A stretch of DNA of 48,166 bases from a virus. Lineage: Duplodnaviria > Heunggongvirae > Uroviricota > Caudoviricetes. Of the stretch, positions 1-24,475 are shown piece after piece. Position 1 is the first letter of the stretch; each line of letters begins with the position of its first letter. The stretch is taken from IMG/VR virus record IMGVR_UViG_2639762987_000003; one strand, 5' to 3'. The translations under genes were made by a program, and so were the position numbers. The notes under the pieces were generated by a model, which saw nothing but the letters and a program-made list of their open reading frames with translations, did no database searches and was not told the origin of the DNA.

Positions 1-34
1 TAAAGCACTTTTTATATAAATATATAATTATATA
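1..34. repeat. 34-bp terminal overlap identical to positions 48133-48166 (circular join or terminal redundancy)
   Basis: First 34 nt (taaagcactttttatataaatatataattatata) are identical to the last 34 nt of the window. Confidence 0.9.
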
Positions 35-37
35 ATT

Positions 38-625
38 TTATGCCACTTGCCAGAGAGCATCATGCAACTGGATACCTCCATTGCACTGGTTGCCCCAGCC
101 ATGCCAACCATCAGGTAAATCACCGCGAGAAAACAGCTCAATACGAGGAACATCACCTAACAGCCTTACCAGCTTGTCACGAACCACATCAGGCTTCCGA
201 GAATGCTCCAGACGAGGCGATGTAAACGACTGAATGATCCCCGCATCAAGGCGGGTCGGCAATTTGCCTTTTACCGCAAACAAGCAATCTTCACTGTTTG
301 CACGAGTCATATGCCCCATCCCCATCACCAGCTTATCTGGTTGTCGGCTACCACATTTGTTCCATGTGAAGCCCTTCATGGTCATAAGCCTGAATCCCCA
401 TGCTTTCACCACCAGCAACGCTTCTTCTGGCTGAGTCGGAACCCACCACATGGCCAACAAACACGATTCAGGATTAGCAAGCTGCCAGACAGGAATACGA
501 GCAATATCCTCAGCTTTCATCGTTGGATACTTAAAACCAGCTCCACGATTCCCATCCTTACACTTATCTTTGTATTCCCAGGGGGGATCTGCATAAATCA
601 GATTAAACAATGCAATTGCCTCCAT
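38..625 (-). CDS. DNA N6-adenine methyltransferase, MT-A70-like
   Basis: 195-aa ORF with DPPW motif (LIYADPPWEY) typical of MT-A70/Dam-like phage methyltransferases. Confidence 0.75.
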   Translation of the reverse strand: MEAIALFNLIYADPPWEYKDKCKDGNRGAGFKYPTMKAEDIARIPVWQLANPESCLLAMWWVPTQPEEALLVVKAWGFRLMTMKGFTWNKCGSRQPDKLVMGMGHMTRANSEDCLFAVKGKLPTRLDAGIIQSFTSPRLEHSRKPDVVRDKLVRLLGDVPRIELFSRGDLPDGWHGWGNQCNGGIQLHDALWQVA

Positions 626-933
626 GTTAGTTGTGCCTCCGGCGCTGATCTCCGGCAGTCATAACGCTGGCCAGCTCTACAGCAGACACAACGAAAAGGG
701 CACTAACCAGACTGATTAATGCCCTTGCCTGTTGTGTGCCGGATATCGCCCGACAACGCTGTTTTGGTAACACGGCTACAGTTCCGTGCCGCTCCAGCTT
801 TTACCCCTTTGCGGATAACAGGCCCTGCCTGTAACTTAGCCCCACGTTCGCCCGAAATGCGCACCAGGCACGCATAAAGATGAGCACGAAGGAAGTAACT
901 CCACCGCGCTTATCTTTATGTGTGAGAGTGAAT

Positions 934-1009
934 TGGTGGCCCCTACCGGATTTGAACCGATGACCGTGCGATTATGAGTCGCCTGCTCTAACCACTGAGC
1001 TAAGGGGCC
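934..1009 (-). tRNA. tRNA with CAU anticodon; acceptor, D and anticodon arms resemble E. coli tRNA-Ile2 (ileX-type), elongator tRNA-Met not excluded
   Basis: Reverse complement folds as a 76-nt cloverleaf: 7-bp acceptor stem GGCCCCT/AGGGGCC, D-arm GCTC-AGTGGTTA-GAGC, anticodon loop CTCATAA, T-arm ATCGG-TTCAAAT-CCGGT, terminal CCA encoded. Confidence 0.85.
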
Positions 1010-1150
1010 ATATTTGATCTGTTTGTCTGGTGTGGCGCCGCGCACGAAAATCCCAGCCAATAAATTCAGGATTTTTGGGCGCGGCGGCATATCAGACAAA
1101 CATGGTTGATGCGTGCGCCCATGAGAAAAGCGCATAGAATGTTGTAACTA

Positions 1151-1178
1151 TATATTTATATAATTATAGAAATATATA
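1151..1178. promoter_or_regulatory. AT-rich element containing perfect palindrome TATAATTATA (1159-1168)
   Basis: Member of a dispersed AT-rich motif family; lies between the lysis cassette and the tRNA. Confidence 0.5.
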
Positions 1179-1358
1179 TTACTTGGGGCAGTTGATTTCC
1201 CATGCCCTGTTATGAGCCAGAATATCTTTCTTTGTCTGGCGGTCCATAACATCGATATCGTGATCAGTCAGGTAGATGGGCTTTACCCAATCACAGGCGG
1301 TATCAACCACCACCGGGACGCTTCCACGACTCCCGCAGCTCGCGATCAACATCGTCAT
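1179..1358 (-). CDS. o-spanin (Rz1-like outer-membrane lipoprotein), overlapping the Rz-like gene out of frame
   Basis: Short ORF with lipobox-like LIASC near the N-terminus; overlaps the 3' part of the adjacent ORF in another frame at the end of the lysis cassette. Start chosen at an internal Met of the 1179..1388 track ORF. Confidence 0.5.
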   Translation of the reverse strand: MTMLIASCGSRGSVPVVVDTACDWVKPIYLTDHDIDVMDRQTKKDILAHNRAWEINCPK

Positions 1359-1581
1359 CAGCCATATGGTTAACACTCTGATGTACATTCCCCACCTCTT
1401 TTGTCACTTCTATACGCCGCTCCGCAGTGGCTTTTACGGCGGCTGCATTCTCATTAATGCGCTGCTTTTCAGCTTCATCTTCGGCCTTTTCTCGCCCCTT
1501 CATACGACCAAAACCAAACGCGCCGAATGCAACCAATATAATTGTGCCAATAAATGACAAAACGGCCTTCAAACCAGTCAT
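1303..1581 (-). CDS. i-spanin (Rz-like), N-terminal transmembrane helix and charged periplasmic part
   Basis: 92-aa ORF with N-terminal hydrophobic segment then charged/coiled region; start overlaps the endolysin stop. Confidence 0.55.
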   Translation of the reverse strand: MTGLKAVLSFIGTIILVAFGAFGFGRMKGREKAEDEAEKQRINENAAAVKATAERRIEVTKEVGNVHQSVNHMADDDVDRELRESWKRPGGG

Positions 1582-2120
1582 ACCACCACTCGCTCTTTCA
1601 TCCAGCCGTAGACAAACGACTCATTCGCCTCGCGCTTCTCCGCCAGCTCCAGATAGCGTTCGCCCTGCGTACAGTTCAGCGACGTCAGCATCACCCGTTC
1701 GCCGTCTTTTCCCCGATTCCCAAGATAAGCACGCAGCGCATTAATGGTACGTGGACCGATTCGTCCATCTGCATCCAAATCGGGATACAGCTTCCCACGC
1801 AGATTGAACACATTCAGCCAGCGTTGAAGCATTTTGGACGCCACTGTTGGCCCCATATTCACACCGGTATCACACAGCTCTGCGGCAATATCAGAGGATA
1901 ATGCGGCCACCTGATCAAAGCGTGGTCCGTACCAGTAATCAGCCTCAAGGATTTCCAGTGCCTGTTCGCGGGTTAAATCGCGCATATCGCCACGGTATCC
2001 ATGAGCACGGGCAGTGTTCTGAGTAATGCCCCACTTTGTTGGGCCTCCCTTGTCGTCAGGGTGATCCACATAGCCGCCCTCTTTTCCAAGAACGCTGTTA
2101 AAAATCTCATCTTTGGTCAT
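1578..2120 (-). CDS. Endolysin, GH108-type N-terminal domain with peptidoglycan-binding C-terminal domain
   Basis: Motif EGGYVDHPDDKGGPTKWGIT near the N-terminus is characteristic of GH108 lysozymes; sits between holin-like and spanin genes. Confidence 0.8.
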   Translation of the reverse strand: MTKDEIFNSVLGKEGGYVDHPDDKGGPTKWGITQNTARAHGYRGDMRDLTREQALEILEADYWYGPRFDQVAALSSDIAAELCDTGVNMGPTVASKMLQRWLNVFNLRGKLYPDLDADGRIGPRTINALRAYLGNRGKDGERVMLTSLNCTQGERYLELAEKREANESFVYGWMKERVVV

Positions 2121-2403
2121 GATTAAACCCTAATGCGTCAACTATCCGCGCCAGATTGCCCCTGAAATACAGAACAACGATGCAGATAATCAGATTTCCA
2201 ATAACCACCAGCCAGTGGGATTCTTGATAAAGACCGAACACATAACGGAAGGGAACATTGGCGTATACAATGACGTAAATATAAGCCAGAAAGGAAACAA
2301 ATGGACGATGCCTGGAGTCTTTCCGTCGATAAAGCATCAGCGCCATTACTATTACTGTGCAAAGCACCGCATTAATCAGTGCTGACGGGTCACTGCTTAC
2401 CAT
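2107..2403 (-). CDS. Holin-like or antiholin-like small membrane protein
   Basis: Several hydrophobic segments; located between the holin and the endolysin. Start uncertain (internal Met chosen). Confidence 0.45.
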   Translation of the reverse strand: MVSSDPSALINAVLCTVIVMALMLYRRKDSRHRPFVSFLAYIYVIVYANVPFRYVFGLYQESHWLVVIGNLIICIVVLYFRGNLARIVDALGFNHDQR

Positions 2404-2785
2404 TTGAACCCCCTCCACGTAAGCGGGAAAGCATTCCAAAGATGCTACCGAGATCCTGGCTGTTTACGAACGTGAGGATTTTAATGGTCAATGCAGCCAC
2501 AATAACCGCACCAAGCGCATCCAGAGGACGATCGTTGTAGCTGGTCCATTTAGCAAGAAATGAGCCAACTAACGGCGCTCCAATCACTCCAACAATGAAC
2601 GATGTAAAGAAATAGCCAATCAGCTTGAGACGGCTAATATTCACCGCTGTAGCAACATAGAAAACAGCGCCAGCAAATGCCCCGAATACAACGCCGTAAT
2701 CAATACCAGTTGCAATACCAAAAACGCTGGCACCCATCAGGCCACCAGCAGCAACGGCCGTACCGGAAATTGGTTCTGCTGACAT
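2390..2785 (-). CDS. Holin (multi-pass small membrane protein)
   Basis: 131-aa Gly/Ala-rich hydrophobic protein with charged C-terminus, first gene of the lysis cassette. Confidence 0.55.
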   Translation of the reverse strand: MSAEPISGTAVAAGGLMGASVFGIATGIDYGVVFGAFAGAVFYVATAVNISRLKLIGYFFTSFIVGVIGAPLVGSFLAKWTSYNDRPLDALGAVIVAALTIKILTFVNSQDLGSIFGMLSRLRGGGSNGKQ

Positions 2786-2797
2786 TGAAATCCTCGT

Positions 2798-2830
2798 TAA
2801 AAAAAAAGCCCCGCCGAAAAAGGCAGGGCT
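2798..2830 (-). terminator. Rho-independent terminator immediately upstream of the holin start
   Basis: On the minus strand, 9-bp GC-rich stem (one G-U pair), 6-nt loop, followed by a run of 9 U. Confidence 0.65.
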
Positions 2831-2975
2831 TCATAAAGCAACAAATTACGCGGTAATCGCTTAACGCAGTTTTACTACGTTAAATGAAACACTACACCCA
2901 GTTACCACCTAAAACAAGGTTTCCCCATAAAAAAACCTTCATATCGTGGTTAATCGATCAATAAAAAAGCAATGT

Positions 2976-3167
2976 TCAACTTTTTACCAACTGAACATCC
3001 CGACCAGGACTTCCATAATATTCGCCGATATTCCACTGCTTAAGTTGAGTAATCTTCTCCAACTTAACTCCCACAGAATCCAATTTCTGCCATGTTTTCG
3101 GTTGTATGTGCCTCATTACCCGCTCTGAATATCTAAATACTGCTCGTAGCCTCGCTAAATTGCTCAC
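2976..3167 (-). CDS. Hypothetical small protein
   Basis: 63-aa ORF with GGAGG Shine-Dalgarno 6 nt upstream of a GTG start; overlaps the stop of the upstream gene. Confidence 0.4.
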   Translation of the reverse strand: MSNLARLRAVFRYSERVMRHIQPKTWQKLDSVGVKLEKITQLKQWNIGEYYGSPGRDVQLVKS

Positions 3168-3880
3168 TTGTCGCCTCCTTTACGAATCTGTTCCGCCCAC
3201 TCCTCAAGAGATTTCTCCGCATATTCACCGGACAGGCCATCAATCGGGTGCGGTTCATTAGCCAACTCTTCTTTCGCTGACAAAATCATGCGTGTAACGT
3301 CGAAAACTTCACGCAAAGACTTATTGATAAATCCGTGATTGAACGCAGCAGCAAGACGGCTTGCGGTGTAGTTAATCCCCTCGTTGCGTGCCTCCGCACG
3401 TATTTCAGCCAGGAAAGCATCGGTGGCTGGAATGGGCTTTTGTGGTGATATAGCAATGCGAATTGTCTCAAGGTCTGGAGCTGTTTCCGCTGTTGGCACC
3501 TTGATATAACCCGTCTGCACCCCATTCATGATGAACCTGCGACGGTCATCACATATCGCCTTAAGCCCTGCATTCTCCGCCGCCAGCGCCGCACGACTGG
3601 CCTCCAGTTCAGCAATGCGTTTGCTTTGTGCTTCCCGTTCATTCAGCAACGCCTGCACTACTTCTGGGTTGAAAGCTGCGATATAACGAGCGTTGTTCTC
3701 TGCGTTTTTCTGTCCGTCAAAGCCGGTCCATTTGATAACGTCTTCACATCGTTTATCACCGGGTGTATGCACCGCATATGTACCAGTACCCGACGAAATA
3801 AATGCGACCCATTCGCCTTGTGTTGCCTGTTTTGCTATCTCACGTAGTGCCTGATAGTTAATTGCTGTGCTGTTAGTCAT
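3164..3880 (-). CDS. Ea22/Ead-like lambdoid early-region protein
   Basis: Resembles Ead/Ea22-like proteins by eye (segment YAVHTPGDKRCEDVIKWTGFDG...AAFNPEVVQALL); start set at Met with GGAGG 7 nt upstream. Confidence 0.45.
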   Translation of the reverse strand: MTNSTAINYQALREIAKQATQGEWVAFISSGTGTYAVHTPGDKRCEDVIKWTGFDGQKNAENNARYIAAFNPEVVQALLNEREAQSKRIAELEASRAALAAENAGLKAICDDRRRFIMNGVQTGYIKVPTAETAPDLETIRIAISPQKPIPATDAFLAEIRAEARNEGINYTASRLAAAFNHGFINKSLREVFDVTRMILSAKEELANEPHPIDGLSGEYAEKSLEEWAEQIRKGGDK

Positions 3881-4217
3881 TCCAGGCCTCCAGCTCGTTC
3901 TGAATCTCCTCGTCAACCTCGTCATTGGTGGCGTCTTCGTTCAGATGGTCGCGCGCCTCTTTGAGATACTGTTCACGGCGTTCGTGGTACCAGGCTGAGA
4001 ACTCCGGCGACCATCCTCGATTAGCCCCCTGAAAATCTACCATCGCATTATCCTCGGCCATACGCTCGACCATGCAATCCGCGGTGTTCAGTGCAACCTC
4101 ACGGATGTACCCCCGCAGGTCGCGCTTACGCCAATACGGGCTATATTTTGAGTCGCAGCGGCCTTTAAATTCGACGGTCCAGCGACGGATGCAGCGTGCG
4201 TTAAGTGATTTGCTCAT
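3873..4217 (-). CDS. Hypothetical protein
   Basis: 114-aa ORF in a tightly packed minus-strand operon. Confidence 0.45.
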   Translation of the reverse strand: MSKSLNARCIRRWTVEFKGRCDSKYSPYWRKRDLRGYIREVALNTADCMVERMAEDNAMVDFQGANRGWSPEFSAWYHERREQYLKEARDHLNEDATNDEVDEEIQNELEAWND

Positions 4218-4219
4218 AG

Positions 4220-4831
4220 TTATGCTTCCTTAATACGCTTAAACTCAATTACCCATACCCACGGGTTAGATAGCCAGTTCTCTTGCCCGTAAATACCGCG
4301 CCAGATATCACCAAAGCCAACGCGATAAACAGCTTCCGGCGGTGTAATCTTGTACGTCACCGGAGATGCGCCTTCTGCTTTAGCATCTGCCTCGCTCATG
4401 TCATGCAGCCGCTCCACACGCACGTCGGTAATTTCCAGCAAAATACGCGAAGCCCAGCGCGGCATGTGAATCGACGGGGTCCAGCCCTCAGCTGGCTTGC
4501 TACTATCTGAGTAATCAGCCTTGTAATCACACAGTTCAGAAGCCAGAGAGACACCATCTTTGATTTCCTGAATGACATCGTTATCCAGCCAAAAAGCGTT
4601 GAATGTTTCACGGACCCATATGCGATCACCAACGTTACCGAACGGGCATAAACCATGTTCCAGTGCATCCATAACGTGGGTATAGACACCATTGCGTTTC
4701 TTTGTCGGTTTACGGATAACCAGGCAGTTATCGGCCCTGACATTTTTTACAGGTCGGCGAGTCTGCGTCTTCCTTCCTTCGAGGATGGCCCTAACCATAT
4801 CGTCATTAAAAACAACACCACGTTCTTTCAT
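4220..4831 (-). CDS. Hypothetical phage protein with conserved N-terminal GRKTQTRRP motif
   Basis: 203-aa ORF; motif recalls a conserved phage protein family but the family cannot be named with confidence. Confidence 0.45.
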   Translation of the reverse strand: MKERGVVFNDDMVRAILEGRKTQTRRPVKNVRADNCLVIRKPTKKRNGVYTHVMDALEHGLCPFGNVGDRIWVRETFNAFWLDNDVIQEIKDGVSLASELCDYKADYSDSSKPAEGWTPSIHMPRWASRILLEITDVRVERLHDMSEADAKAEGASPVTYKITPPEAVYRVGFGDIWRGIYGQENWLSNPWVWVIEFKRIKEA

Positions 4832-5082
4832 TTAGAAGCCACCTTGTTCAATTTCCGGCGACAAGACACGCAATCATCAGGACTCTCAAAAGTGTCTGGC
4901 TCACGGTAATCACCAAAATACATCCAACGGCCGCAAATGCTGGTTACTTCACCTTCATTAAAATAATGATGTTTATTCGCCTTCATTGGCCTGACCCATC
5001 CGGCATTTTTCTTGCTCACTTCAACTCCTCCCGACGACGTTCCTGAAGCTCTAGCATTGCGGCTCGGAAATCCTGCCACCAT
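4828..5082 (-). CDS. Hypothetical small Cys-containing protein (true start may be the internal Met at 4986)
   Basis: ORF overlaps the upstream gene by 67 nt unless the internal start is used. Confidence 0.35.
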   Translation of the reverse strand: MVAGFPSRNARASGTSSGGVEVSKKNAGWVRPMKANKHHYFNEGEVTSICGRWMYFGDYREPDTFESPDDCVSCRRKLNKVASK

Positions 5083-5381
5083 TCCTCATCTGCAACGGGG
5101 GTGTTCCGCTCCAGCACCTTGTCCGCATCAGCGATCAGGTTTGCCAGACTCTTGTCTGAAATCTTCGTTACCGGAGTCGTTGGTTGCTCAACCTGCCCGA
5201 TAGGTTTTATCGTGCTCAAAAGGAGGCGACGGCGGGAAAGTGGTGCCCCACAACGACGGCCATCTTCCTTGCGATATGTTTCTTTCGGACCAACACACCA
5301 GGTTGTCGGCGTTTCGCGCAACTTCACTCTTTTCTCACCATCATTGGTAATGATTATTCCGGTATGGGTTTTGATGCTCAT
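5016..5381 (-). CDS. Hypothetical protein
   Basis: 121-aa ORF in operon context. Confidence 0.4.
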   Translation of the reverse strand: MSIKTHTGIIITNDGEKRVKLRETPTTWCVGPKETYRKEDGRRCGAPLSRRRLLLSTIKPIGQVEQPTTPVTKISDKSLANLIADADKVLERNTPVADEEWWQDFRAAMLELQERRREELK

Positions 5382-5680
5382 GCCACAGCCCCTCTCAACG
5401 GCTTAACTTTGGCTAATAAGGTGTTAAACAACATGGAGTTAGGATTCATGCCAAATGGCAATTCCGGTTTAGCGGAGTAGTACAGGCAACCATTTATTTT
5501 CCTGGTTGTTATCTGTCCTTCGGCAACCATGCTTCTCAGTCTGCAACGCATAGAGTTCTGCGACACACCAATGTGCTCCGCGATTACGTCCACTTTTGAA
5601 CATGGGTGATCGGTCAGGAAATTAATCACATCTTGGGGGTTAATAATTTTGCGTTTCATTGTCGAGGCGTCCTTATACAT
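5378..5680 (-). CDS. Hypothetical protein, possible small DNA-binding regulator
   Basis: 100-aa ORF directly downstream of an AT-rich motif and a hairpin terminator. Confidence 0.4.
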   Translation of the reverse strand: MYKDASTMKRKIINPQDVINFLTDHPCSKVDVIAEHIGVSQNSMRCRLRSMVAEGQITTRKINGCLYYSAKPELPFGMNPNSMLFNTLLAKVKPLRGAVA

Positions 5681-5704
5681 TTGTATAAATATATAATTCT
5701 ATAT

Positions 5705-5726
5705 ACGGCGGGAGACGTCCCGCCGT
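5705..5726 (-). terminator. Perfect 9-bp GC-rich hairpin (terminator or RNA stability element)
   Basis: acggcggga-gacg-tcccgccgt, 10 nt after the stop of the 5737..6804 gene; no clean U-run, so termination efficiency is uncertain. Confidence 0.45.
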
Positions 5727-5736
5727 AGGCTTACTG

Positions 5737-6804
5737 TCAGGCTTTCAATAGCGATTCTTTTAGATATCGGGCATCAGCCAGGGCGTTTGGAGTAATCTTG
5801 CGAACCCATGCATTACGGGTTGGACTCCACTTAAAGGCGCGTGATTTAAGCAGCGAACGAATGTTTGCCTCTGGTTTGCCAGGGAAATAAAACAGGATGC
5901 GGTTATCCTCTGGATCTATCTCCATAGAAAAGCCGTCGTATTCTTCGCGCTGTGCTCCTGTTACAGACTTGACCGATTCAAGCTCCTTAATACGGCTCTG
6001 TAGTCGTTTGATTTCGGCGTTATTGTTGCTCAGTGCGTATGAAGGGAATCCGATGTGCCCACAGAAATCTCCGGCCAGTAACTCTTTGGCTTCGCTTTCT
6101 GTAAACCTGAGATCGATTAATGCAGAAAGCTGCTGTATTTGGTCTTTTTTGTATTTGCGAATGGCCTTATTTGCGGCCTTCATTTTGACGTGTGACTTCA
6201 TGCAGCCTTGCAGCTTACGAAGCAACTTAAATAGCGCATCAGGATCATCAGACGAAATTCCATTACGACCAACACCTGCGGCTTTGCTCTCGTAGTGTGA
6301 TGCTTTACTTTCGCATTCAACAAACGCTTTTCTGAATAACGCATCAGCTTTAGACAAACGGCGGCGATGGCCTTTCGCGCTATAATGGTCAACTAAAATC
6401 GGCTGGCCTAACGGGATCACATCCAACAGGTCATGCGCTCGCTTATGCGCTACCGCACCTTCTTTTCTGGCTTTTTCTGCACGAGCAATATATCGGGCAA
6501 GACGCGCGTTCTGGCGTTCCTGATAGGTGTTTACGTAATCATCTCCGCGCTGCTGCTGTTCAAGCCATGCTTTGCGCAGATCTTCTGTTACGTCCACCAG
6601 CTCCGCAGGGATACAACCAGTTTGGGCTTCATAAGAGTAACCATCCTCATAGATACGCCCATCGTCTTCAACAAAGAAAAAGGTTTCGTGCTCATCGCTT
6701 TTGACCATACGACCATTAACATGGCGTAATAGGTAGCCAGTATCAGTGCTTAACAGGCTGTTAGGGTTGTTGATCCAGTCAGAAATAATTACTTGTTTAT
6801 TCAT
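5737..6804 (-). CDS. Hypothetical 355-aa protein, first gene behind promoter cassette A
   Basis: Start set at the ATG 8 nt downstream of the cassette's GGAG; the longer track ORF (from 6858) translates the conserved leader. Confidence 0.6.
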   Translation of the reverse strand: MNKQVIISDWINNPNSLLSTDTGYLLRHVNGRMVKSDEHETFFFVEDDGRIYEDGYSYEAQTGCIPAELVDVTEDLRKAWLEQQQRGDDYVNTYQERQNARLARYIARAEKARKEGAVAHKRAHDLLDVIPLGQPILVDHYSAKGHRRRLSKADALFRKAFVECESKASHYESKAAGVGRNGISSDDPDALFKLLRKLQGCMKSHVKMKAANKAIRKYKKDQIQQLSALIDLRFTESEAKELLAGDFCGHIGFPSYALSNNNAEIKRLQSRIKELESVKSVTGAQREEYDGFSMEIDPEDNRILFYFPGKPEANIRSLLKSRAFKWSPTRNAWVRKITPNALADARYLKESLLKA

Positions 6805-6912
6805 CAGATTTCTCCGGTTTAACCAGGGCGGGTATCGCTCGGTTTCGGGTATAACCATAGGAAATTTTTTCCCACCTGTAAAGCACTTTTTATATAAATC
6901 TATAATTATATA
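6801..6912 (-). promoter_or_regulatory. Promoter-leader cassette copy A: TATAATTATA palindrome, -35 TTTACA, 17-bp spacer, -10 TATGGT, ~45-nt leader, GGAG, ATG
   Basis: Near-identical to 16776-16877 and 48055-48166; lies about 60 bp downstream of the Q-like gene. Confidence 0.6.
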
Positions 6913-6973
6913 TTTATAGATTTTCGATGTTCCCGATGTCTACACACCATCAAAACAGCTCAAAATGACACTT

Positions 6974-7351
6974 TTACTCTCTTCGCTTTTTCAAATAGTC
7001 GACAACATACGCCCTGGCTTTTGCCAGCTTCCGGCGATACTGTCTGAGGCTAAGAGAAAGGGCGTGGGCTTTATCAATATGCGGTGCATTTATGTCGAGG
7101 CCCCGAATCTCCCACGCCCCGTATTCAATTCGGACAACCAGCGCCGCAGTCTCATCAACTACCGTGAGGGCCGTCACCGCTCCCTCTATACTGGTTTCCA
7201 GTGAGTCATTTGGTGCGCCGCCCCCTCCGGTAAACTGGCAGCGCGTAACCATCATCATTTCTAACATCGACGCGAAACCGCTACGGGCGTTGCAGCCATT
7301 GCGCACCCACAGCGCCCATAGCTCAAACAAGCTATCCAGATCGCGTCTCAC
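6974..7351 (-). CDS. Putative Q-like antitermination protein
   Basis: 125-aa protein whose N-terminal pattern (MRRDLDSLFELWALWV) resembles small Q-family antiterminators; gene is followed immediately by promoter cassette A. Confidence 0.45.
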   Translation of the reverse strand: MRRDLDSLFELWALWVRNGCNARSGFASMLEMMMVTRCQFTGGGGAPNDSLETSIEGAVTALTVVDETAALVVRIEYGAWEIRGLDINAPHIDKAHALSLSLRQYRRKLAKARAYVVDYLKKRRE

Positions 7352-16931: not shown

Positions 16932-17231
16932 TCAGATGTTAAACGCTATTCGTTTTCCTGTGGGAAGCTCAACATCCAGGCTTAATTTGCCTCCCATAGC
17001 TTCAACGTAACGCTTTAATGTCGCCAGCTTTAAATCATTTCCGCGCTGCTCCAGCTTTGTTACTGCTGGCTGGCTTATACCCATCGCCTCAGCAACCTGT
17101 TTTTGTGATAACTGGAGTTCTTCACGCATCATCTGCAAGCCGACCTCAAGAATCATCTCATCTGCCATTTCTTTAATTCGCGCCTGGCTTTCAGGTGAAC
17201 GGCTGGCAATCACCTCATCTAATGTTCTCAT
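16932..17231 (-). CDS. higA: HigA-like HTH antitoxin
   Basis: 99-aa HTH protein (LSQKQVAEAMGISQPAVTKLEQ) immediately downstream of the toxin gene, 1-nt overlap. Confidence 0.65.
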   Translation of the reverse strand: MRTLDEVIASRSPESQARIKEMADEMILEVGLQMMREELQLSQKQVAEAMGISQPAVTKLEQRGNDLKLATLKRYVEAMGGKLSLDVELPTGKRIAFNI

Positions 17232-17584
17232 TACTTGCTCTCCAGTGTGTTCAGATGTGCTGCAAACTCATCCTCAGCTATACGCACCAGTTTTTCATAA
17301 AACCGTTTATCGTTACTTTTGTCTCCTGCACAAAGAACGATGGCCCGGCGAATCGGATCGAACGCATAAAAGGCTCTGATCGGACGGCCAGAAAACTGAA
17401 CGCGAAGCTCTTTCATATTTTTGTACCGAGAACCTTTTACGGTATCGGCATATGGCCTGGGTAACTCAGGTCCGTAAACCTGTAGCTTTTTCAAATCAGC
17501 CAAAACCTTTTCCTGAAGAGCGTCTTCTTGCTCATTTAGCCAGTCGTCAAATCGCTGGCTAAAAAGTACCGTCCACATGCTCAA
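17231..17584 (-). CDS. higB: HigB/RelE-family toxin (Gp49-like addiction-module killer)
   Basis: 117-aa protein with segments typical of HigB-like toxins (PIRAFYAFDPIRRAIVLCAGDKSNDKRFYEKL); toxin-first gene order. Confidence 0.65.
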   Translation of the reverse strand: MSMWTVLFSQRFDDWLNEQEDALQEKVLADLKKLQVYGPELPRPYADTVKGSRYKNMKELRVQFSGRPIRAFYAFDPIRRAIVLCAGDKSNDKRFYEKLVRIAEDEFAAHLNTLESK

Positions 17585-18779: not shown

Positions 18780-19040
18780 GCAAAGCCTGCGTAAGTTAAA
18801 TAAAGAAAGTCTTAATAAAAGAAAGTGATTTTGCATTTATTTGTTTAGTGCATCTATTATAAAAAACCATTTGCATATACATATCAAAACTGTGGATAAC
18901 TTTATTAGCCGATGCCTGTAAAGGCGATATTTTTGCTGTGTTCCGGTTTAGAGAAAATTAATTTAGATTGTTTTTTGAACAGATATTTTATTGCGACGTA
19001 GATAATCCTCCGGTAAAACCGGATTCATCATTCAGGTGGG
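18780..19040. other. Candidate plasmid origin region downstream of repA (AT-rich, DnaA box 18891-18899)
   Basis: TTATCCACA (as tgtggataa on the plus strand), repeated ATTTGCAT motifs and a ccggtaaaaccgg hairpin; GC-rich hairpins follow at 18590-18780. Confidence 0.45.
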
Positions 19041-19889
19041 TTAATGTTGGAGTGATTTCCAGGTCTTTCTTAACCTGTTATAACGCTGCTCAACGAGGGA
19101 TCGTAAATATGCAAGGTCAGCTCCAGGATACATGCCATCAGCAAATTCCTGGCTAACCTCTCTAGTGATTTGATGACGAAGTTCGGCCTCTCCCTTTTCC
19201 CGAACAAGACGCGCAGCTCTCTCCGCTGCTTTCTGTTTTGCCTTTATCTCTCTGGCCGTCTTCCTCTGATGCCATACATTCTCCATCTGCTCCTGAATAA
19301 CAATACGCTTATAATCAGCCTCCGTTATCGCTTTTTTAAGCCGTTCGCTATTCTTCGCATTGAAGTAATTAAGTTTCTGGCTAACCGCACGTCTCCATGC
19401 TTGTTCAGTAATACCAACGGTTTCCAGCAGTTGATCACGAATCTCTATTTTCGCTGGCCAATACTGTTTATTCACCCGATCCCAGCGACGTTCATAATCA
19501 ATAAAACCTAACGCTTTCAGTTGCGACAACGCCCTTGTACAGCGCGTTATAGACTTGTTCCCAGCTTCGGATACGGTAGACAGGCCGCAAAAATCAGCCA
19601 ACGCCTCAGCACTGGCCAGAACCCGCTTAGAAATGATGTTTACATGGTGCAAAATCGCAGCGATCACAGCATTAATCGCCCGACGACGATGCTCGTTTAT
19701 CCGGCGCTTCCGCTCTGACGGTTGATTAACGTAGAACGCAACCTCACACGTAAGATCACGCCCATTAATGCGCTGTAAAGCATCAGATAACACCAGCGGC
19801 AGCTTGTGCGTATGGTGCTTTGGAGGCTGGAACTCCGGCGACAAATTACAAACGTAAGCTGAACGTAGAGACGGCATTGGTCTATCCAT
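19041..19889 (-). CDS. repA: IncFII-type RepA1-like replication initiator
   Basis: Segment KSITRCTRALSQLKALGFIDYE matches the RepA1 core as recalled; start set at Met 44 of the track ORF to give about 282 aa. Confidence 0.75.
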   Translation of the reverse strand: MDRPMPSLRSAYVCNLSPEFQPPKHHTHKLPLVLSDALQRINGRDLTCEVAFYVNQPSERKRRINEHRRRAINAVIAAILHHVNIISKRVLASAEALADFCGLSTVSEAGNKSITRCTRALSQLKALGFIDYERRWDRVNKQYWPAKIEIRDQLLETVGITEQAWRRAVSQKLNYFNAKNSERLKKAITEADYKRIVIQEQMENVWHQRKTAREIKAKQKAAERAARLVREKGEAELRHQITREVSQEFADGMYPGADLAYLRSLVEQRYNRLRKTWKSLQH

Positions 19890-19899
19890 ATGTTCGCTC

Positions 19900-20010
19900 T
19901 TGCGTCCACGGAAAACCAACGTATAATGGGAGTTGTCGAGGCGCCCATGGTTAGTTGTTGGTTTTCCGTGGATGTCGCAAGAAGCCCGCAGATTTATCTG
20001 CGGGCTTTTT
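19900..20010 (+). ncRNA. Candidate CopA-like antisense RNA over the repA leader
   Basis: 15-bp inverted repeat (19906-19920 with 19957-19971) followed by a perfect rho-independent terminator (19983-20010), both on the strand opposite to repA. Confidence 0.35.
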
Positions 20011-20054
20011 GTTTCCATATCTGGTCACTTTCCAACCAGACACCCACAATCATA

Positions 20055-20069
20055 ACCACGTTACGTGGT
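20055..20069. promoter_or_regulatory. ACCAC-N5-GTGGT operator site upstream of the repA leader
   Basis: accacgttacgtggt; same palindrome family as the repressor operators. Confidence 0.55.
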
Positions 20070-20484
20070 TTTAAGAGAACTCTACCACAACACTTTCGGT
20101 CATGCACGAAGTCTCTCACTGATCGAACGATAATCCACCAGTAAAAGGATCTAAATTGGATCTCGTTTTGCGAGCATCATACTACTGGCCTAACTCCAGT
20201 CAATGATTCCCAGCCAGAAACCTGCGGTAAACTCATCGTTCAGCAATATGCTGTCCGGCTTCAAAGATAAGGTGACATCATCCCTTAACAGCGCGGCCAG
20301 TTCAGTTAAAGGGCTGTTCTGATTTAATGCTGGCCACTCATACCTGGTAATAAGTGGTCAGTCTTAACACTCACCATTTGATTGCACCCGTGTTGACGAT
20401 TTGTTACTGGATATCAGACACGCTGGATAGCCAGTAGAAACATACCATTAAAATTATTACAATAATTGGTCACATGATTATCTT

Positions 20485-21048
20485 ATGCTGAATAATAAAG
20501 ATATGAATATTAATGAACTTAAAGACTGTATTCACTATGAAGTAATCGGTAGCGAGCGTCCTTTCTCCTGGCGAAAGGCAATTGTTCGCGCAATAAAACA
20601 TAGAAGGGTTCGTTATTTATTTTGGTGGCGCATAGCCAAATACCTTTTTGATAAAGGCGGATACTGTCGGAAGATTGCGGGAAAAATAGAACGTTTCATT
20701 CTTGATAAATATAATGTAACAGTCCCTTTAACTGTAAATATAGGGAAAGGCTTTGATATTTCTTATCTCAACAGTGTTGTTATCGGTCACAAAGTAACAA
20801 TCGGTGAAAATTGTTCAATTAAGCCCGGAGTAACTATTGGACTTCGCGGGGAATTTAATGATATGGATATTGTTATAGGGCATAATGTGACCATTGGTTG
20901 TAATGCCACCATTCTTGGTGGCAAAGTGCGTATAGGAAACAATGTCACAATAGGTGCTCATGCATTGGTATTGCATGATATTCCTGATGATTCAACATTC
21001 ATCACTAAATTTCAGTCTGAAGTTATCTGCTCGTCCTCCCGAACATAA
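20485..21048 (+). CDS. Hexapeptide-repeat (left-handed beta-helix) acyl/acetyltransferase; candidate moron
   Basis: Repeated [LIV]-G-x-x-x-x hexapeptides ([22 protein letters not shown]...[32 protein letters not shown]); AT-rich segment; converges on the tail-fibre assembly gene. Confidence 0.7.
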
Positions 21049-21629
21049 CCCTGATTCATCAGCTCTGGCCATACGATATCCGGAGCTGTACTGGTGTCAA
21101 TTCTACTCACTAATACTCTGTATTTTCTCCAGGAATCCAGTTGTGAATTTTCCTCGTTTGTTGCTATTTCAAGATTAACTGCATCCTGCAGAATTGCGAT
21201 GTTATCTGTTGCTTCCTGGATCAACCTTGCCTTTTTCTCTTCCGCTTCCCGTATCCGAAACAGTTTTTCTGCTTCCTCATCATTCACCCAGGATACGCCG
21301 TCCCACTTCTGATACTCCCCTGCTGGCGACAACCAGGTGACATTCTCTGGTAGCGGTCCGAGTTCAGAAATAAACAATGCGTCCCCCGACGCCACGTCAT
21401 AGACCGTTTTACCACGATGGTCTTCAACAATATTCCACGATTCATTTTCACTGTTAAAAACTGCCACAAAGCCAGCAGGAATTTCCGGTGGGGCGATATC
21501 TGTAGAATTAGCTGGCAGCCCTGTATGAGGTGGAATATATGCGTCACCTTCACCAATAAACTCATTAGTTCCGGCCAGCAGGTTATAAATTTTTACGGTA
21601 CGTGATTGTTCACTCATTCTGAATGCCAT
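21012..21629 (-). CDS. Tail fibre assembly chaperone
   Basis: 205-aa protein directly downstream of the tail fibre gene, typical Tfa size and position. Confidence 0.7.
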
Positions 21630-24475
21630 TATGCAAGCCTCACAATATAATTAAATGCGATGTTTTTAACGGTGTTTTCCGCGTTACCAGCAGCGTTAAC
21701 GGTGATGGTGTGTCCATGTGAACCAATCTTAACAGAGTGCGTATGAGCGCCAATACCAACAGTGTGTGCATGTGCCCCAGCACTTGTAGCGGTACCTGAT
21801 ACTGAGTGGGTATGTGCGCCAGAAGAAGGCACAGTTCCATTCCCCACCACCGTGCCACTTGATGAACCATCCAGCCAGTCGAAATTCATACCGCCACTGT
21901 TTGGTCTCCTTAATGGAACGGTATGAGTATGTGCGCCAGCACTATTTGCAGTACCAGATACATTGTGGGTATGTGCACCTGTGTTATTCGTTGATTTAGT
22001 ACCGTAATCAAACGACGATGTGGTTTTCGTACCCAAATCCGTACTGGATGCGCTGGCACTGTGGGTGTGCGATTTAATGCCATCCTGTTCCTGAGACAAT
22101 ACGGCCCGACCACTGGCGGGTTTGCCCTTGATTGTCCAGCCGCGCATATCTGGAATAACACCAGAAGGATAGGCAATAGCCAGTTTCGGATATGCTGCCT
22201 TATCAAACGTCTGCCCCTGCATGATTGCATAACCTGCAGGTGGCGTATCTGATGGCCACGGCAGCGGAACACCTGGCGGAAACGCTTCAATATTTGCCGA
22301 GCCGTCAAATTTTACGCCGTTAATTGTCCTTGCCGTTTTCAGCTTTGTTGCTGTAGCAGCATTGCCGGATAGTTCGCCTGAAAGACCACCGCTGAATGTC
22401 TGTTTCGCCATCCATGTCTGAGCTTCGTCGATAATTGGCACACGTCTTGTCGTGATCGTGCGGCTTCCCGGATTTCCTGAAATGCGAACCATAAAAAAGC
22501 GGTAGTTGGCTTTACTTACAGTGCTGCGCCATACATGCATTGAGCGTCCCGAACCAGAATCATCACTCGGACCGACTGAGATGTTTATCAGGTTGCCATC
22601 AATGACGCCCCAGTCCATACCGTCGGGAATATTGGTCATGTTATCAAGCCGAACGGTTATCAGACTGCCCGGCACAAAATCGTAGGTCTGCCAGTCCAGG
22701 CTGGTGAGCTTTGCCACAGCACCGCCGATACCCAGATTCAGGGGAAGTGAATACGAGGTGTAGACTTCCCGCCATTCGCTCCATGAGCTGCCGGTAAAGA
22801 CGCGCTCAAAGGTGCGGCCTTTAAGGGTTGTACCTGTTCCGGCAGTTGTATAACGCTGCCATACATTAACACCATCAAACCGCCTCAACACTTCCAGAAT
22901 GCCGAGTACAGTCACGCCGTTTCCGTCCAGTACTGGACCGTTGGTCGCTTTACCTGTAACGCTGTAAATACCTGGTGAGGTTACATCATTCAAATCACCT
23001 TCGTAATAACGACTCTCTGACTGATGACCGACTCTTAACCACGGTTCCCACTGCGGATTTGATGCATCCCAGCTTGCCGCAAGACAGCGGACATACATAT
23101 TTCCACGGCGAGTGGTATAACGTTGCGTTCTTCCATAATTTCCGCCTTCGAGGATCTCAAGCATCCCCTGAGCAAAGCCGCCTTCCTCTGGATAATTGCG
23201 TTCATATGAAGCTATAGCTGAGCTACTGTTACGCCATAAACCAAGATGCTCGGCGGCTCCAAGCGTATTCAGGTCTATAGTCGTACTCAAAGGGCGGGTA
23301 GCAGATTGAGTGTGACGCCATACGCCCCACGGACCATCAGTGCCATTCCACTTATTGGCGAGTTTACGCATGTATACATTGCCGCCTCCCGTGGTAAAGC
23401 GTTGCGTACCTGCAAAATTGCCGGCAGCAAAAACCTCAAGCACACCGACAGCATTATCTTCCGGGAAATTTTTCTCCAGTGTTGCGTTGGTGGATGTTGC
23501 TTTAGACCAGATACCTGAATAAGCCTTAACAGGACCAAACGTATTCAGATCAGCATCAAGCGGCATTTCGCCATTGTTTTTCATAAACGTCAGGCTGGTA
23601 ACGCCAACATTGTCCAGAAAAGCTGATTTATCCTGGATATCTGCACCGTTCTGATTTTTCGCCAGACGTGAATTTGCGTTGTCATTTGCTGCCTTGACCG
23701 CTTTTGGCGTTGCCGCCTGCGTTTCAGACGTACTGTTAGTGGCACTACTGAGCTGAACTATCCCTTTTTGTGCCGTGGTGGCATTCTGGGCGGTATATTT
23801 TCCGTCAGCCAGGTCATATGCAGCCTTAACAGCCTTAGGCGTCGCTGCGAGCTTTTCAGACGTGCTATTGGTGGCATTACTGAGTTGAACAATGCCTTTT
23901 GATGTTAAAGTTGCATCAGGATGATTACGTGATTGCTCATGTTTTACAATAGCTTGCTTAAGCCGCTTTGCTGAAACAGCCAGGGAATCATCTGTACCTG
24001 CATCAATTTCTTGTTCATTAGCAAATCTTGCTACTCCAACAACAGTTTCGGTTGCGGGAGGGTTAATAAACTCAACATCACCAAATGTAATGTTTTTAGT
24101 ATCAAGATTTTTAATTGCTATATCACTTGATATTAAAGCAATTGTAGAAGATGCTTTATTTATTATTACTTGTTCTTGCGAGTATACAGCAAACAATGTT
24201 CCTTTATTTGTATACAAACCTATTGTATGGACAGCATACTCATCTTTACTATCATCCTTCGCAGTTACATGAATGGTATCAGGAGAAACGACTTTGCCTC
24301 CTATTGTGGTAAGTCGCTTTATTTCATCTGTTATTTTTGTTTGTGTGGTTGATGTGGCATAATATCTACTACCTAAACCAACAGAAACGATCTCAACTTT
24401 ATTTGTTCCAGTCTTGTTGGCATTAACCAGCGCCTTACGCCCGGCGTCAGTCATCGTAAATAATAATTTACTCAC
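21629..24475 (-). CDS. Tail fibre protein
   Basis: 948-aa protein with His-rich GAH(T/A)H(S/T)V repeats at the C-terminus. Confidence 0.8.

Follow-up and report, generated by a model that had tools for sequence, protein, structure and literature searches.

A serine acetyltransferase-like gene with a replaced catalytic dyad in a mobile tail-fibre cassette of a RepA phage-plasmid

Phages are already known to carry genes for enzymes that acetylate the surface glycans of their hosts. The serotype-converting phage Sf6 and its relatives encode Oac (Acyl_transf_3), a membrane O-antigen acetyltransferase whose gene typically lies next to int and att. The soluble enzyme NeuO is a further case (PMC3046976). 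Here we describe an acetyltransferase-like gene located in a 48,166-nucleotide stretch of viral DNA (IMG/VR record IMGVR_UViG_2639762987_000003), which is called the window below. The window is a circular 47-kb RepA phage-plasmid of the myovirus type. The gene encodes a hexapeptide-repeat protein with a left-handed beta-helix (LbH), and it is distinguished from the known systems by the serine acetyltransferase (SAT)-type fold of its product, by the replacement of the catalytic dyad and by a physical interlock with a mobile tail-fibre cassette. Our leading but tentative reading is that the lysogen would express a transferase in the cytoplasm. By acetylating a precursor of an envelope glycan, this enzyme would alter the surface seen by the fibre of the same cassette.

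With Oac the gene shares this proposed logic, a temperate-phage gene acetylating a surface glycan, but Oac has an unrelated integral-membrane fold, acts on the other side of the membrane and is typically not part of a fibre cassette. NeuO is the best functional precedent, being a phage LbH enzyme that alters a surface glycan from the cytoplasm. Both genes are prophage-borne, both encode soluble LbH-family proteins and both lie outside the polysaccharide cluster of the host. However, NeuO has a catalytic histidine together with a tryptophan and resembles MAT, GAT, VatD, PaXAT and OatWY rather than SATs (PMC3046976). No entry named NeuO was found among the 55 PDB sequence matches or the top 50 Foldseek matches of the window protein. 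NeuO is also phase-variable through a 5' heptanucleotide repeat, whereas Tandem Repeats Finder (minimum score 30) detected no such repeat between positions 20000 and 21200.

The serine acetyltransferases of the CysE type (PDB 1t3d, 6wye, 4n69) have a helical N-terminal domain followed by an LbH domain, as does the window protein (TMq up to 0.73), and the LbH sequences can be aligned with E about 1e-12. The window protein differs from them by a score far under the CysE cutoff, by the replacement of the dyad and of the serine-binding residues, by a much shorter N-terminal domain and by the lack of the CysK-binding tail. The enzymes of the WcaB (colanic acid) and EpsC type (NF007564, TIGR04016, NF041874) share the architecture of ∼160-190 residues and are among the best NCBIfam matches; in contrast to these, the window protein scores 60-81 bits against cutoffs of 150-196, is encoded in a phage fibre cassette and carries tyrosine in place of histidine. 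Closest in arrangement are the genes labelled 'serine acetyltransferase' in Hafnia phage yong2, Citrobacter phage phiNP (ORF4), the P1-like phage JL22 (sacF) and Ro157c2YLVW, which converge in the same way on the tail fibre assembly gene tfa and the tail fibre gene. Their products are 36-53% identical to the window protein (tblastn), but those of phiNP, JL22 and Ro157c2YLVW have kept the canonical histidine and Asp/Glu, with yong2 as the exception. The purpose of the JL22 gene was described as 'still unknown' (PMC9603915), and the phiNP gene was listed only as predicted 'fitness' cargo (PMC6456863).

Position of the gene and the cassette that carries it

The 187-residue open reading frame is present on the plus strand exactly as described in the initial annotation, which was made from the sequence alone (Table 1). 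Two ATG codons, at 20485 and 20503, are conserved in the alignment; RefSeq uses the second one (181 residues) and some GenBank records the first. The segment is AT-rich, as had been noticed before: the GC content of 20415-21050 is 0.369, compared to 0.445 for the window and 0.456, 0.471 and 0.479 for tfa, fibre and repA, respectively. At third codon positions the GC content of the reading frame is 0.30 versus 0.40-0.41. Comparison with the copy on the ∼99-kb plasmid L002 revealed 12 synonymous and 3 non-synonymous differences (dN/dS, the ratio of non-synonymous to synonymous substitution rates, about 0.07), and for divergent members of the clade dN was 0.23-0.42 with dS saturated. The full-length match to phrog_2154, the presence in 185 of 5426 complete Escherichia coli genomes and the low dN/dS exclude a chance reading frame.

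The gene is the sole plus-strand gene inside a minus-strand block of roughly 30 kb. It had been called opposite to all neighbouring late genes, which is correct for the strand, but its upstream neighbour is not a late gene and encodes an IncFII-type RepA. Downstream, the gene ends within the 3' end of tfa, again as described, with an overlap of 37 nt. The Pfam domain of Tfa ends near residue 189-192 of 205. In the Tfa protein of the window 15 residues follow the conserved 'WP', compared to 4-5 in related Tfa proteins, and these extra codons coincide exactly with the overlap. In a subclade of ∼91% identity the tfa stop codon lies 11 nt past the acetyltransferase stop and there is no overlap, and in other phages the two genes are separated by gaps of 4-50 nt. 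The overlap is a derived feature of the subclade of the window, and the simplest cause for it is a loss of the original tfa stop codon. The adjacency to receptor-binding genes that had been pointed out before is a physical tie to tfa and the fibre gene.

Together with tfa and the last three-quarters of the fibre gene, which encode its C-terminal part, the acetyltransferase-like gene forms a cassette of ∼3.3-3.5 kb. P2-like prophages, P1-type phage-plasmids and the RepA phage-plasmid described here exchange this cassette. By blastn, window positions 20415-23607 are 94.3% identical to plasmid L002, whose holin gene and long tail fibre lead us to regard it as P1-like and whose MOB-suite replicon type is IncHI1B. 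Positions 20232-23772 are 94.5-95.6% identical to P2-like chromosomal prophages of E. coli EcPF40 and CFSAN018748 (L003 and L004). The N-terminal ∼235 residues of the fibre are specific for the backbone. On the left side, the DNA common with the P2-like prophages begins with the fossil 3' end of a gpU-type tail gene. The translation of this fossil, NSSFSNMLSGFKDKVTSSLNSAASSVKGLF followed by a stop, matches the last 30 residues of an intact 162-residue tail protein in L003, and PGAP annotates a pseudogene fragment at the same position. The fossil indicates that the cassette came into the phage-plasmid from a P2-like prophage.

The exchange is also visible in the upstream contexts of the gene. 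Among 43 IMG/VR contigs carrying a gene of the window's type, with tyrosine at the catalytic position (Tyr-type), 16 have P2 gpU and tape measure genes upstream, nine an invertase 3' remnant, seven the P1-type holin side and two RepA with the gpU fossil, while nine have too little upstream sequence to be classified. In the complete E. coli genomes the gene region was found at 219 places (160 chromosomal, 59 plasmid), and the C-terminal allele of tfa at 226 places in 197 genomes. The linkage between the gene and this tfa allele is essentially one-to-one. Presence of the cassette on the same replicon is patchy: it is carried by 20 of the 62 PLSDB plasmids that share the window repA. In sister plasmids with this repA, such as those of E. 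coli ATCC 25922 (L186 7163-9900) and C311, and in L187 (7163-9859), the space from repA to the fibre gene is taken by a recombinase (invertase-like) gene and by two tfa genes in opposed orientation. This segment resembles a Mu/P1-type invertible host-range switch that was displaced by the cassette.

It is close to certain that the gene is a moron and a member of the cassette. The moron status suggested earlier agrees with the foreign base composition, the opposite strand, the promoter-like sequence of its own and the absence from sister phage-plasmids. The promoter-like pair, TAGAAA N17 TACAAT, sits in 70 bp that travel together with the gene in three backbones, and in L002 the -10 element reads TATAAT. 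Near-invariance in the alignment starts at 20415, and the homology to L002 also begins there.

In P2-like prophages the gene is located just downstream of the FI-FII-E-T-U tail genes and is co-directional with them. Since it lies between tfa and the tail genes, the position fits the Z/fun hotspot, which has been published as a locus of mixed cargo and of swapping of receptor-binding proteins (bioRxiv 10.1101/2024.10.15.618418). The tail-gene context speaks for a lytic-phase enzyme, which would be expressed late and would modify envelope glycans of the host or another substrate, so that progeny escape trapping on debris. Llp of phage T5, encoded beside a receptor-binding gene, is an analogue of such a function. 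A late strand position is also found in Streptococcus thermophilus phages from dairy whey: in Streptococcus phage 9871 and relatives (L024 3510-4037) a SAT-like gene with 31% identity follows this pattern, flanked by a gene for a virion structural (adhesion-module) protein on one side and by the holin gene on the other; a review figure marks it with its function not stated (PMC6213268). In contrast, the window, yong2, phiNP, JL22 and Ro157c2YLVW all have the gene in antisense orientation relative to the late genes, with a promoter-like sequence of its own. Converging late transcription would oppose its expression. We regard a lytic-phase role as improbable.

Three further observations concern rearrangements around the gene. 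In the IMG/VR contigs L051-L058 and L061, residues ∼143-184 of a 184-residue invertase are left as a 3' remnant on the opposite strand, ∼85 nt upstream of the ∼91%-identity gene. This layout may be the older arrangement, in which the gene had inserted at the locus of an invertible segment. In L003 and L004 (positions 1-7100) the sheath-tube-E-T-U block lies on the strand opposite to V-W-J-I-H-G and D/ogr, and the gpD-like gene is short (798 nt) with a pseudogene fragment adjacent to it. With the canonical P2 gene order as reference, the FI-U block looks inverted, and the acetyltransferase locus would mark one end of the inversion; gpU and tape measure genes are oriented in this way in 16 IMG/VR contigs as well. 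In plasmid pKFS-D13_3 (CP125027; L185 ∼877-2206) an IS3-family element is inserted at the equivalent of window position ∼20470-20475, which is 10-15 nt before the first ATG and just past the predicted -10 element, and separates the gene from the predicted promoter.

Table 1. Coordinates of the acetyltransferase-like gene, the cassette and neighbouring features in the window.
Feature	Position	Strand	Remarks
repA, IncFII-type	19041..20018	-	NF040977, E 2e-68; upstream neighbour of the acetyltransferase-like gene
Fossil 3' end of P2-like gpU-type tail gene	20230..20322	+	Left limit of DNA common with P2-like prophages
Upstream region conserved across all backbones	20415..20484	+	Sigma-70-like -35 TAGAAA (20435-20440) and -10 TACAAT (20458-20463)
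SAT-fold hexapeptide-repeat (LbH) acyltransferase-like gene	20485..21048	+	187 residues
Convergent 3' overlap of acetyltransferase-like gene and tfa	21012..21048		37 nt; codes for the additional C-terminal residues of Tfa
Tail fibre assembly gene tfa	21012..21629	-	Caudo_TAP, E 1.1e-39; 205 residues
Tail fibre gene	21629..24475	-	948 residues; Pfam Phage_fiber_2 and Collar domains
Fibre C-terminal part, ∼715 residues	21629..23772	-	Receptor-binding, cassette part; blastn boundaries

Fold of the protein and replacement of the active site

The placing of the protein among left-handed beta-helix acyltransferases, proposed in the initial annotation, was confirmed by profile and structure. The score for the Pfam model PF00132 (Hexapep), 47.5 bits, was well above the cutoff of 27 (E 1.1e-12). 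An AlphaFold2 model, predicted as a monomer from a 95-sequence alignment (pLDDT 90.7), has four N-terminal helices (residues 9-76) followed by the left-handed beta-helix, and the top 50 Foldseek matches in the PDB were all serine acetyltransferases (TMq 0.58-0.73). A search of the viral structure library BFVD yielded no meaningful match (best TMq 0.2-0.37). Residues 5-186 of the protein aligned with positions 2-184 of the 185-position profile of phrog_2154, a family without known function (E 6.9e-79). No transmembrane segment was predicted (maximal Kyte-Doolittle value 1.06).

The best NCBIfam matches were EpsC, CysE and WcaB, all of them far under the cutoffs. EpsC reached 81.2 of 150 bits and WcaB 62.4 of 196 and 60.1 of 194.65 bits, so that membership in these families was rejected by score. 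A profile search had been suggested to place the protein among sugar O-acetyltransferases; EpsC and WcaB are indeed among the best matches, but a placement fails because all scores lie below the curated cutoffs. MAT and GAT gave weak sequence matches only (E 1e-7 to 1e-4), with SATs ranking first. Membership in the xenobiotic acetyltransferases was likewise rejected (Vat and CatB models, 22-27 bits versus cutoffs of 300-475), and no defence model of PADLOC-DB v2 matched at E ≤ 1.

The CysE models gave 71.5 of 210.65 bits (TIGR01172) and 44.7 of 397 bits (PRK11132), and CysE membership was rejected as well. These scores bear on the possibility that the gene encodes a genuine serine O-acetyltransferase boosting cysteine synthesis of the host. 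The common database name 'serine acetyltransferase' and the SATs as closest solved folds would agree with this. However, neither the catalytic His/Asp nor the serine-binding Arg-His is conserved, the N-terminal helical domain comprises ∼70 residues only, and the C-terminus (...VICSSSRT) has no tail ending in isoleucine, the element by which CysE binds CysK. A CysE function is very improbable, and the database label is misleading and should not be taken as an indication of cysteine metabolism.

For E. coli CysE we take Asp143 and His158 to be the catalytic dyad and Arg192 and His193 the serine-binding pair. In three HMMER alignments Tyr94 of the window protein aligned with the catalytic histidine of SATs and Thr79 with its aspartate partner, and the serine-binding pair aligned with Met127-Asp128. 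The protein of Hafnia phage yong2 also belongs to this Tyr clade. The next relatives (36-52% identity) have kept the histidine together with aspartate or glutamate at the partner position. With the dyad replaced, canonical O-acetyltransferase chemistry is not to be assumed. The near-invariant Glu108-Asn109 and the glycine ladder are kept, and the Tyr clade is under purifying selection despite the replacement.

A short subfamily from Flavobacteriia and Clostridia has tyrosine at the same column within the motif G-Y-G-G-x-G-V-V-L-H-K, and two examples are encoded in polysaccharide clusters. His102-Lys103 of the window protein have the same spacing from Tyr94 as the His-Lys of this motif. This recurrence makes a relocated catalytic residue in the window protein possible; His133, His159 and His164 are further candidate substitutes.

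The same residues can be read in another way. As an inactive LbH pseudoenzyme, the protein would retain the trimeric beta-helix and its surfaces for ligands but have lost acetyl transfer. It would act by binding, for example by sequestering a sugar-nucleotide or coenzyme A (CoA) ligand or by poisoning a host LbH acetyltransferase via mixed trimers. The loss of the Asp-His dyad and of the Arg-His pair is in line with this, and the change is clade-wide and yet maintained under purifying selection, which means that the role of the protein depends on an intact protein. On the other hand, the tyrosine homologs in polysaccharide clusters with their equally spaced His-Lys suggest relocation rather than loss, and the retained Glu108-Asn109 and glycine ladder speak against a degenerate site. 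In addition, there are sugar N-acetyltransferases of the same fold that function although their dyad is weakened or missing; VioB is active without the carboxylate partner, which is dispensable (PMC9271549). Taken together, we consider a purely binding function unlikely.

Pairing with receptor-binding genes and the proposed role

Convergence on tfa was counted where a convergent tfa lay within 400 nt of the gene. In IMG/VR viral contigs this was the case for 39 of 40 Tyr-type genes and for 19 of 37 His-type genes with 36-52% identity, compared to none of the 80 loci in species-representative genomes. Since it is present in both Tyr- and His-type viral homologs, the pairing with tfa is a recurrent phage feature, and its ancestral form had the canonical active site. 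Other homologs have different neighbours. In ESSI2 P2-like phages and for the E. coli homolog P0020 the gene is located at the prophage end near int, and P0015 belongs to a row of three LbH genes outside any phage context. Three hexapeptide-repeat genes in tandem (181, 193 and 195 residues) lie in the chromosome of Enterobacteriaceae bacterium BIT-l23 (L009 6001-7697), likewise with no phage genes around them; the product of its first gene is 52% identical to the window protein and has kept the canonical His/Asp.

In the reading that we tentatively favour, the product would be a soluble cytoplasmic and presumably trimeric protein with a short helical N-terminal domain and a left-handed beta-helix, closest in fold to the serine acetyltransferases. 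In the lysogen that carries the plasmid, transcription would most likely start from the predicted promoter of the gene itself and run antisense to the late genes, which are silent there. The protein may transfer acetyl from acetyl-CoA to an envelope glycan precursor at the cytoplasmic face of the inner membrane, such as the core of lipopolysaccharide (LPS), an O-unit or another surface polysaccharide. Despite the change from histidine to tyrosine, such a transfer might proceed via His102 or another residue. The altered surface would be the one recognized by the cassette fibre, and the masking of this receptor could result in less superinfection or in less loss of progeny on debris. Modification of a surface polysaccharide had been suggested at the outset. 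The family-level context favours glycan acetylation: distant His-bearing homologs are encoded inside clusters with glycosyltransferases, Wzx/Wzy and NeuB, and distant Tyr-type homologs are likewise found in polysaccharide clusters. In addition, the receptor of phiNP is the outer-core GlcII of LPS (PMC6456863), and the fibre tip of phiNP is 68% identical to the window tip over 217 residues. The window gene itself, between repA and tfa, lies outside any polysaccharide cluster.

Several results weigh against the glycan-acetylation reading. The catalytic histidine is treated as general in the LbH literature, and according to one structural paper it is common to all crystallised members (PMC3046976). 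In a MAFFT alignment of 116 sequences the column of Tyr94 contains 99 histidines, 14 tyrosines and three asparagines; all 14 tyrosine sequences fall into the clade of the window (at least 52% identity) and have threonine, lysine or valine at the partner position. His102 is not kept in the more divergent members of this clade. The promoter is a consensus match only, with a scan score of 9/12, and the scan found no plus-strand terminator-like site downstream of the gene. In P2-like prophages the gene could be expressed late, because it follows the late tail operon in the same direction. A universal link of the protein clade to tail fibres was rejected, as P0014 (54% identity) and P0009 (69%) are encoded away from fibre genes. 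Co-divergence of acetyltransferase alleles with fibre tips was not seen either: the tips of the window, phiNP and JL22 fibres are 68-76% identical, the acetyltransferase-like proteins 37-42%. Such shuffling of alleles relative to the tips fits poorly to a model of one masking enzyme for one tip. Finally, no functional study or phenotype was found in the literature for the gene or its phage homologs.

In a more far-reaching interpretation, the Tyr-clade protein with its remodelled active site would be the dedicated partner of one receptor-binding cassette. More generally, SAT-like genes convergent on tfa would then make up a class of phage genes for receptor editing that is widespread among enterobacterial myoviruses and has gone unrecognised. 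The partner could be an enzyme with a relocated catalytic residue that acetylates the LPS or glycan epitope to which the accompanying fibre binds, or a non-catalytic blocker of a host glycan acetyltransferase. We consider this interpretation doubtful.

The shuffled alleles are also what would be expected if the gene were hotspot cargo unrelated to the receptor, for example an anti-phage defence gene or an acetyltransferase for small molecules or xenobiotics. The Z/fun hotspot, which the position in P2-like prophages fits, is home to defence-like and other cargo as well as to swapped fibres, and some homologs are close to int at the end of a prophage, where an abortive-infection gene adjoins one of them. 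However, neither the PADLOC search nor the low Vat and CatB scores point to such functions, an interlock of 37 nt with tfa and a linkage close to one-to-one speak against mere chance co-location, and the wider family is found in glycan clusters. Independent cargo is rather unlikely, with a slightly smaller chance than the lytic-phase and binding-only explanations.

If the glycan-editing reading is true, ∼3% of complete E. coli genomes (185 of 5426) carry an unrecognised serotype- or receptor-modifying factor. This factor would travel with a host-range module between prophages and phage-plasmids, among which are plasmids that are common in isolates from the clinic, and would bear on the prediction of host range in phage therapy, on O-antigen and LPS typing and on the dynamics of superinfection among elements of the P1, P2 and phage-plasmid types. 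The clade-wide replacement of the dyad under purifying selection is a natural test of how LbH transferases can do without the canonical base.

The phage-plasmid and further features

The identity of the window as a phage-plasmid follows from the IncFII-type repA upstream of the gene and from the match to circular annotated plasmids. A 1.8-kb query spanning repA, the SAT-like gene and tfa was 100% identical to circular E. coli plasmids of ∼47-49 kb. The fully annotated match pSCU-204-5 encodes terminase, portal, capsid, sheath, tube, tape measure, baseplate, fibre, holins and endolysin, and in addition ParA, RepA, a RelE/ParE toxin-antitoxin pair and an XRE repressor. The element is not an integrated prophage.

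At the 5' end of repA a strong terminator-like hairpin, AGCCCGCAGATTTATCTGCGGGCTTTTT, is located on the plus strand (19975-20018), antisense within the first codons of the annotated 325-residue reading frame. RepA family models begin to match only from residue 52-57. Both observations suggest a shorter RepA behind a leader on which a countertranscript acts, in the manner of IncFII-type control. An Rfam scan of 18800-21300 gave sub-threshold matches throughout; at the 5' end of repA these were of the terminator type only (Thr_leader 31.8 bits, CsrC 3' end 22.7 bits). In the same scan the candidate small RNA family IS009 matched over its full length at 21088-21286 on the minus strand (81.5 bits versus a gathering score of 117, E 3e-18). 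This match lies wholly within the coding sequence of tfa; its probable cause is that the model is homologous to DNA derived from tfa, rather than an RNA gene at this position.

Near the replication region a type II toxin-antitoxin pair is encoded on the minus strand (16932-17584), with a toxin of the Gp49/RelE-ParE family (17231-17584) followed by a helix-turn-helix antitoxin (16932-17231). A tRNA gene with the anticodon CAT was detected by ARAGORN on the minus strand (934-1009) and called tRNA-Met. PGAP labels the single tRNA of the sister plasmid as tRNA-Ile; assuming that both are the same gene, it would be an Ile2 tRNA of the lysidine type.

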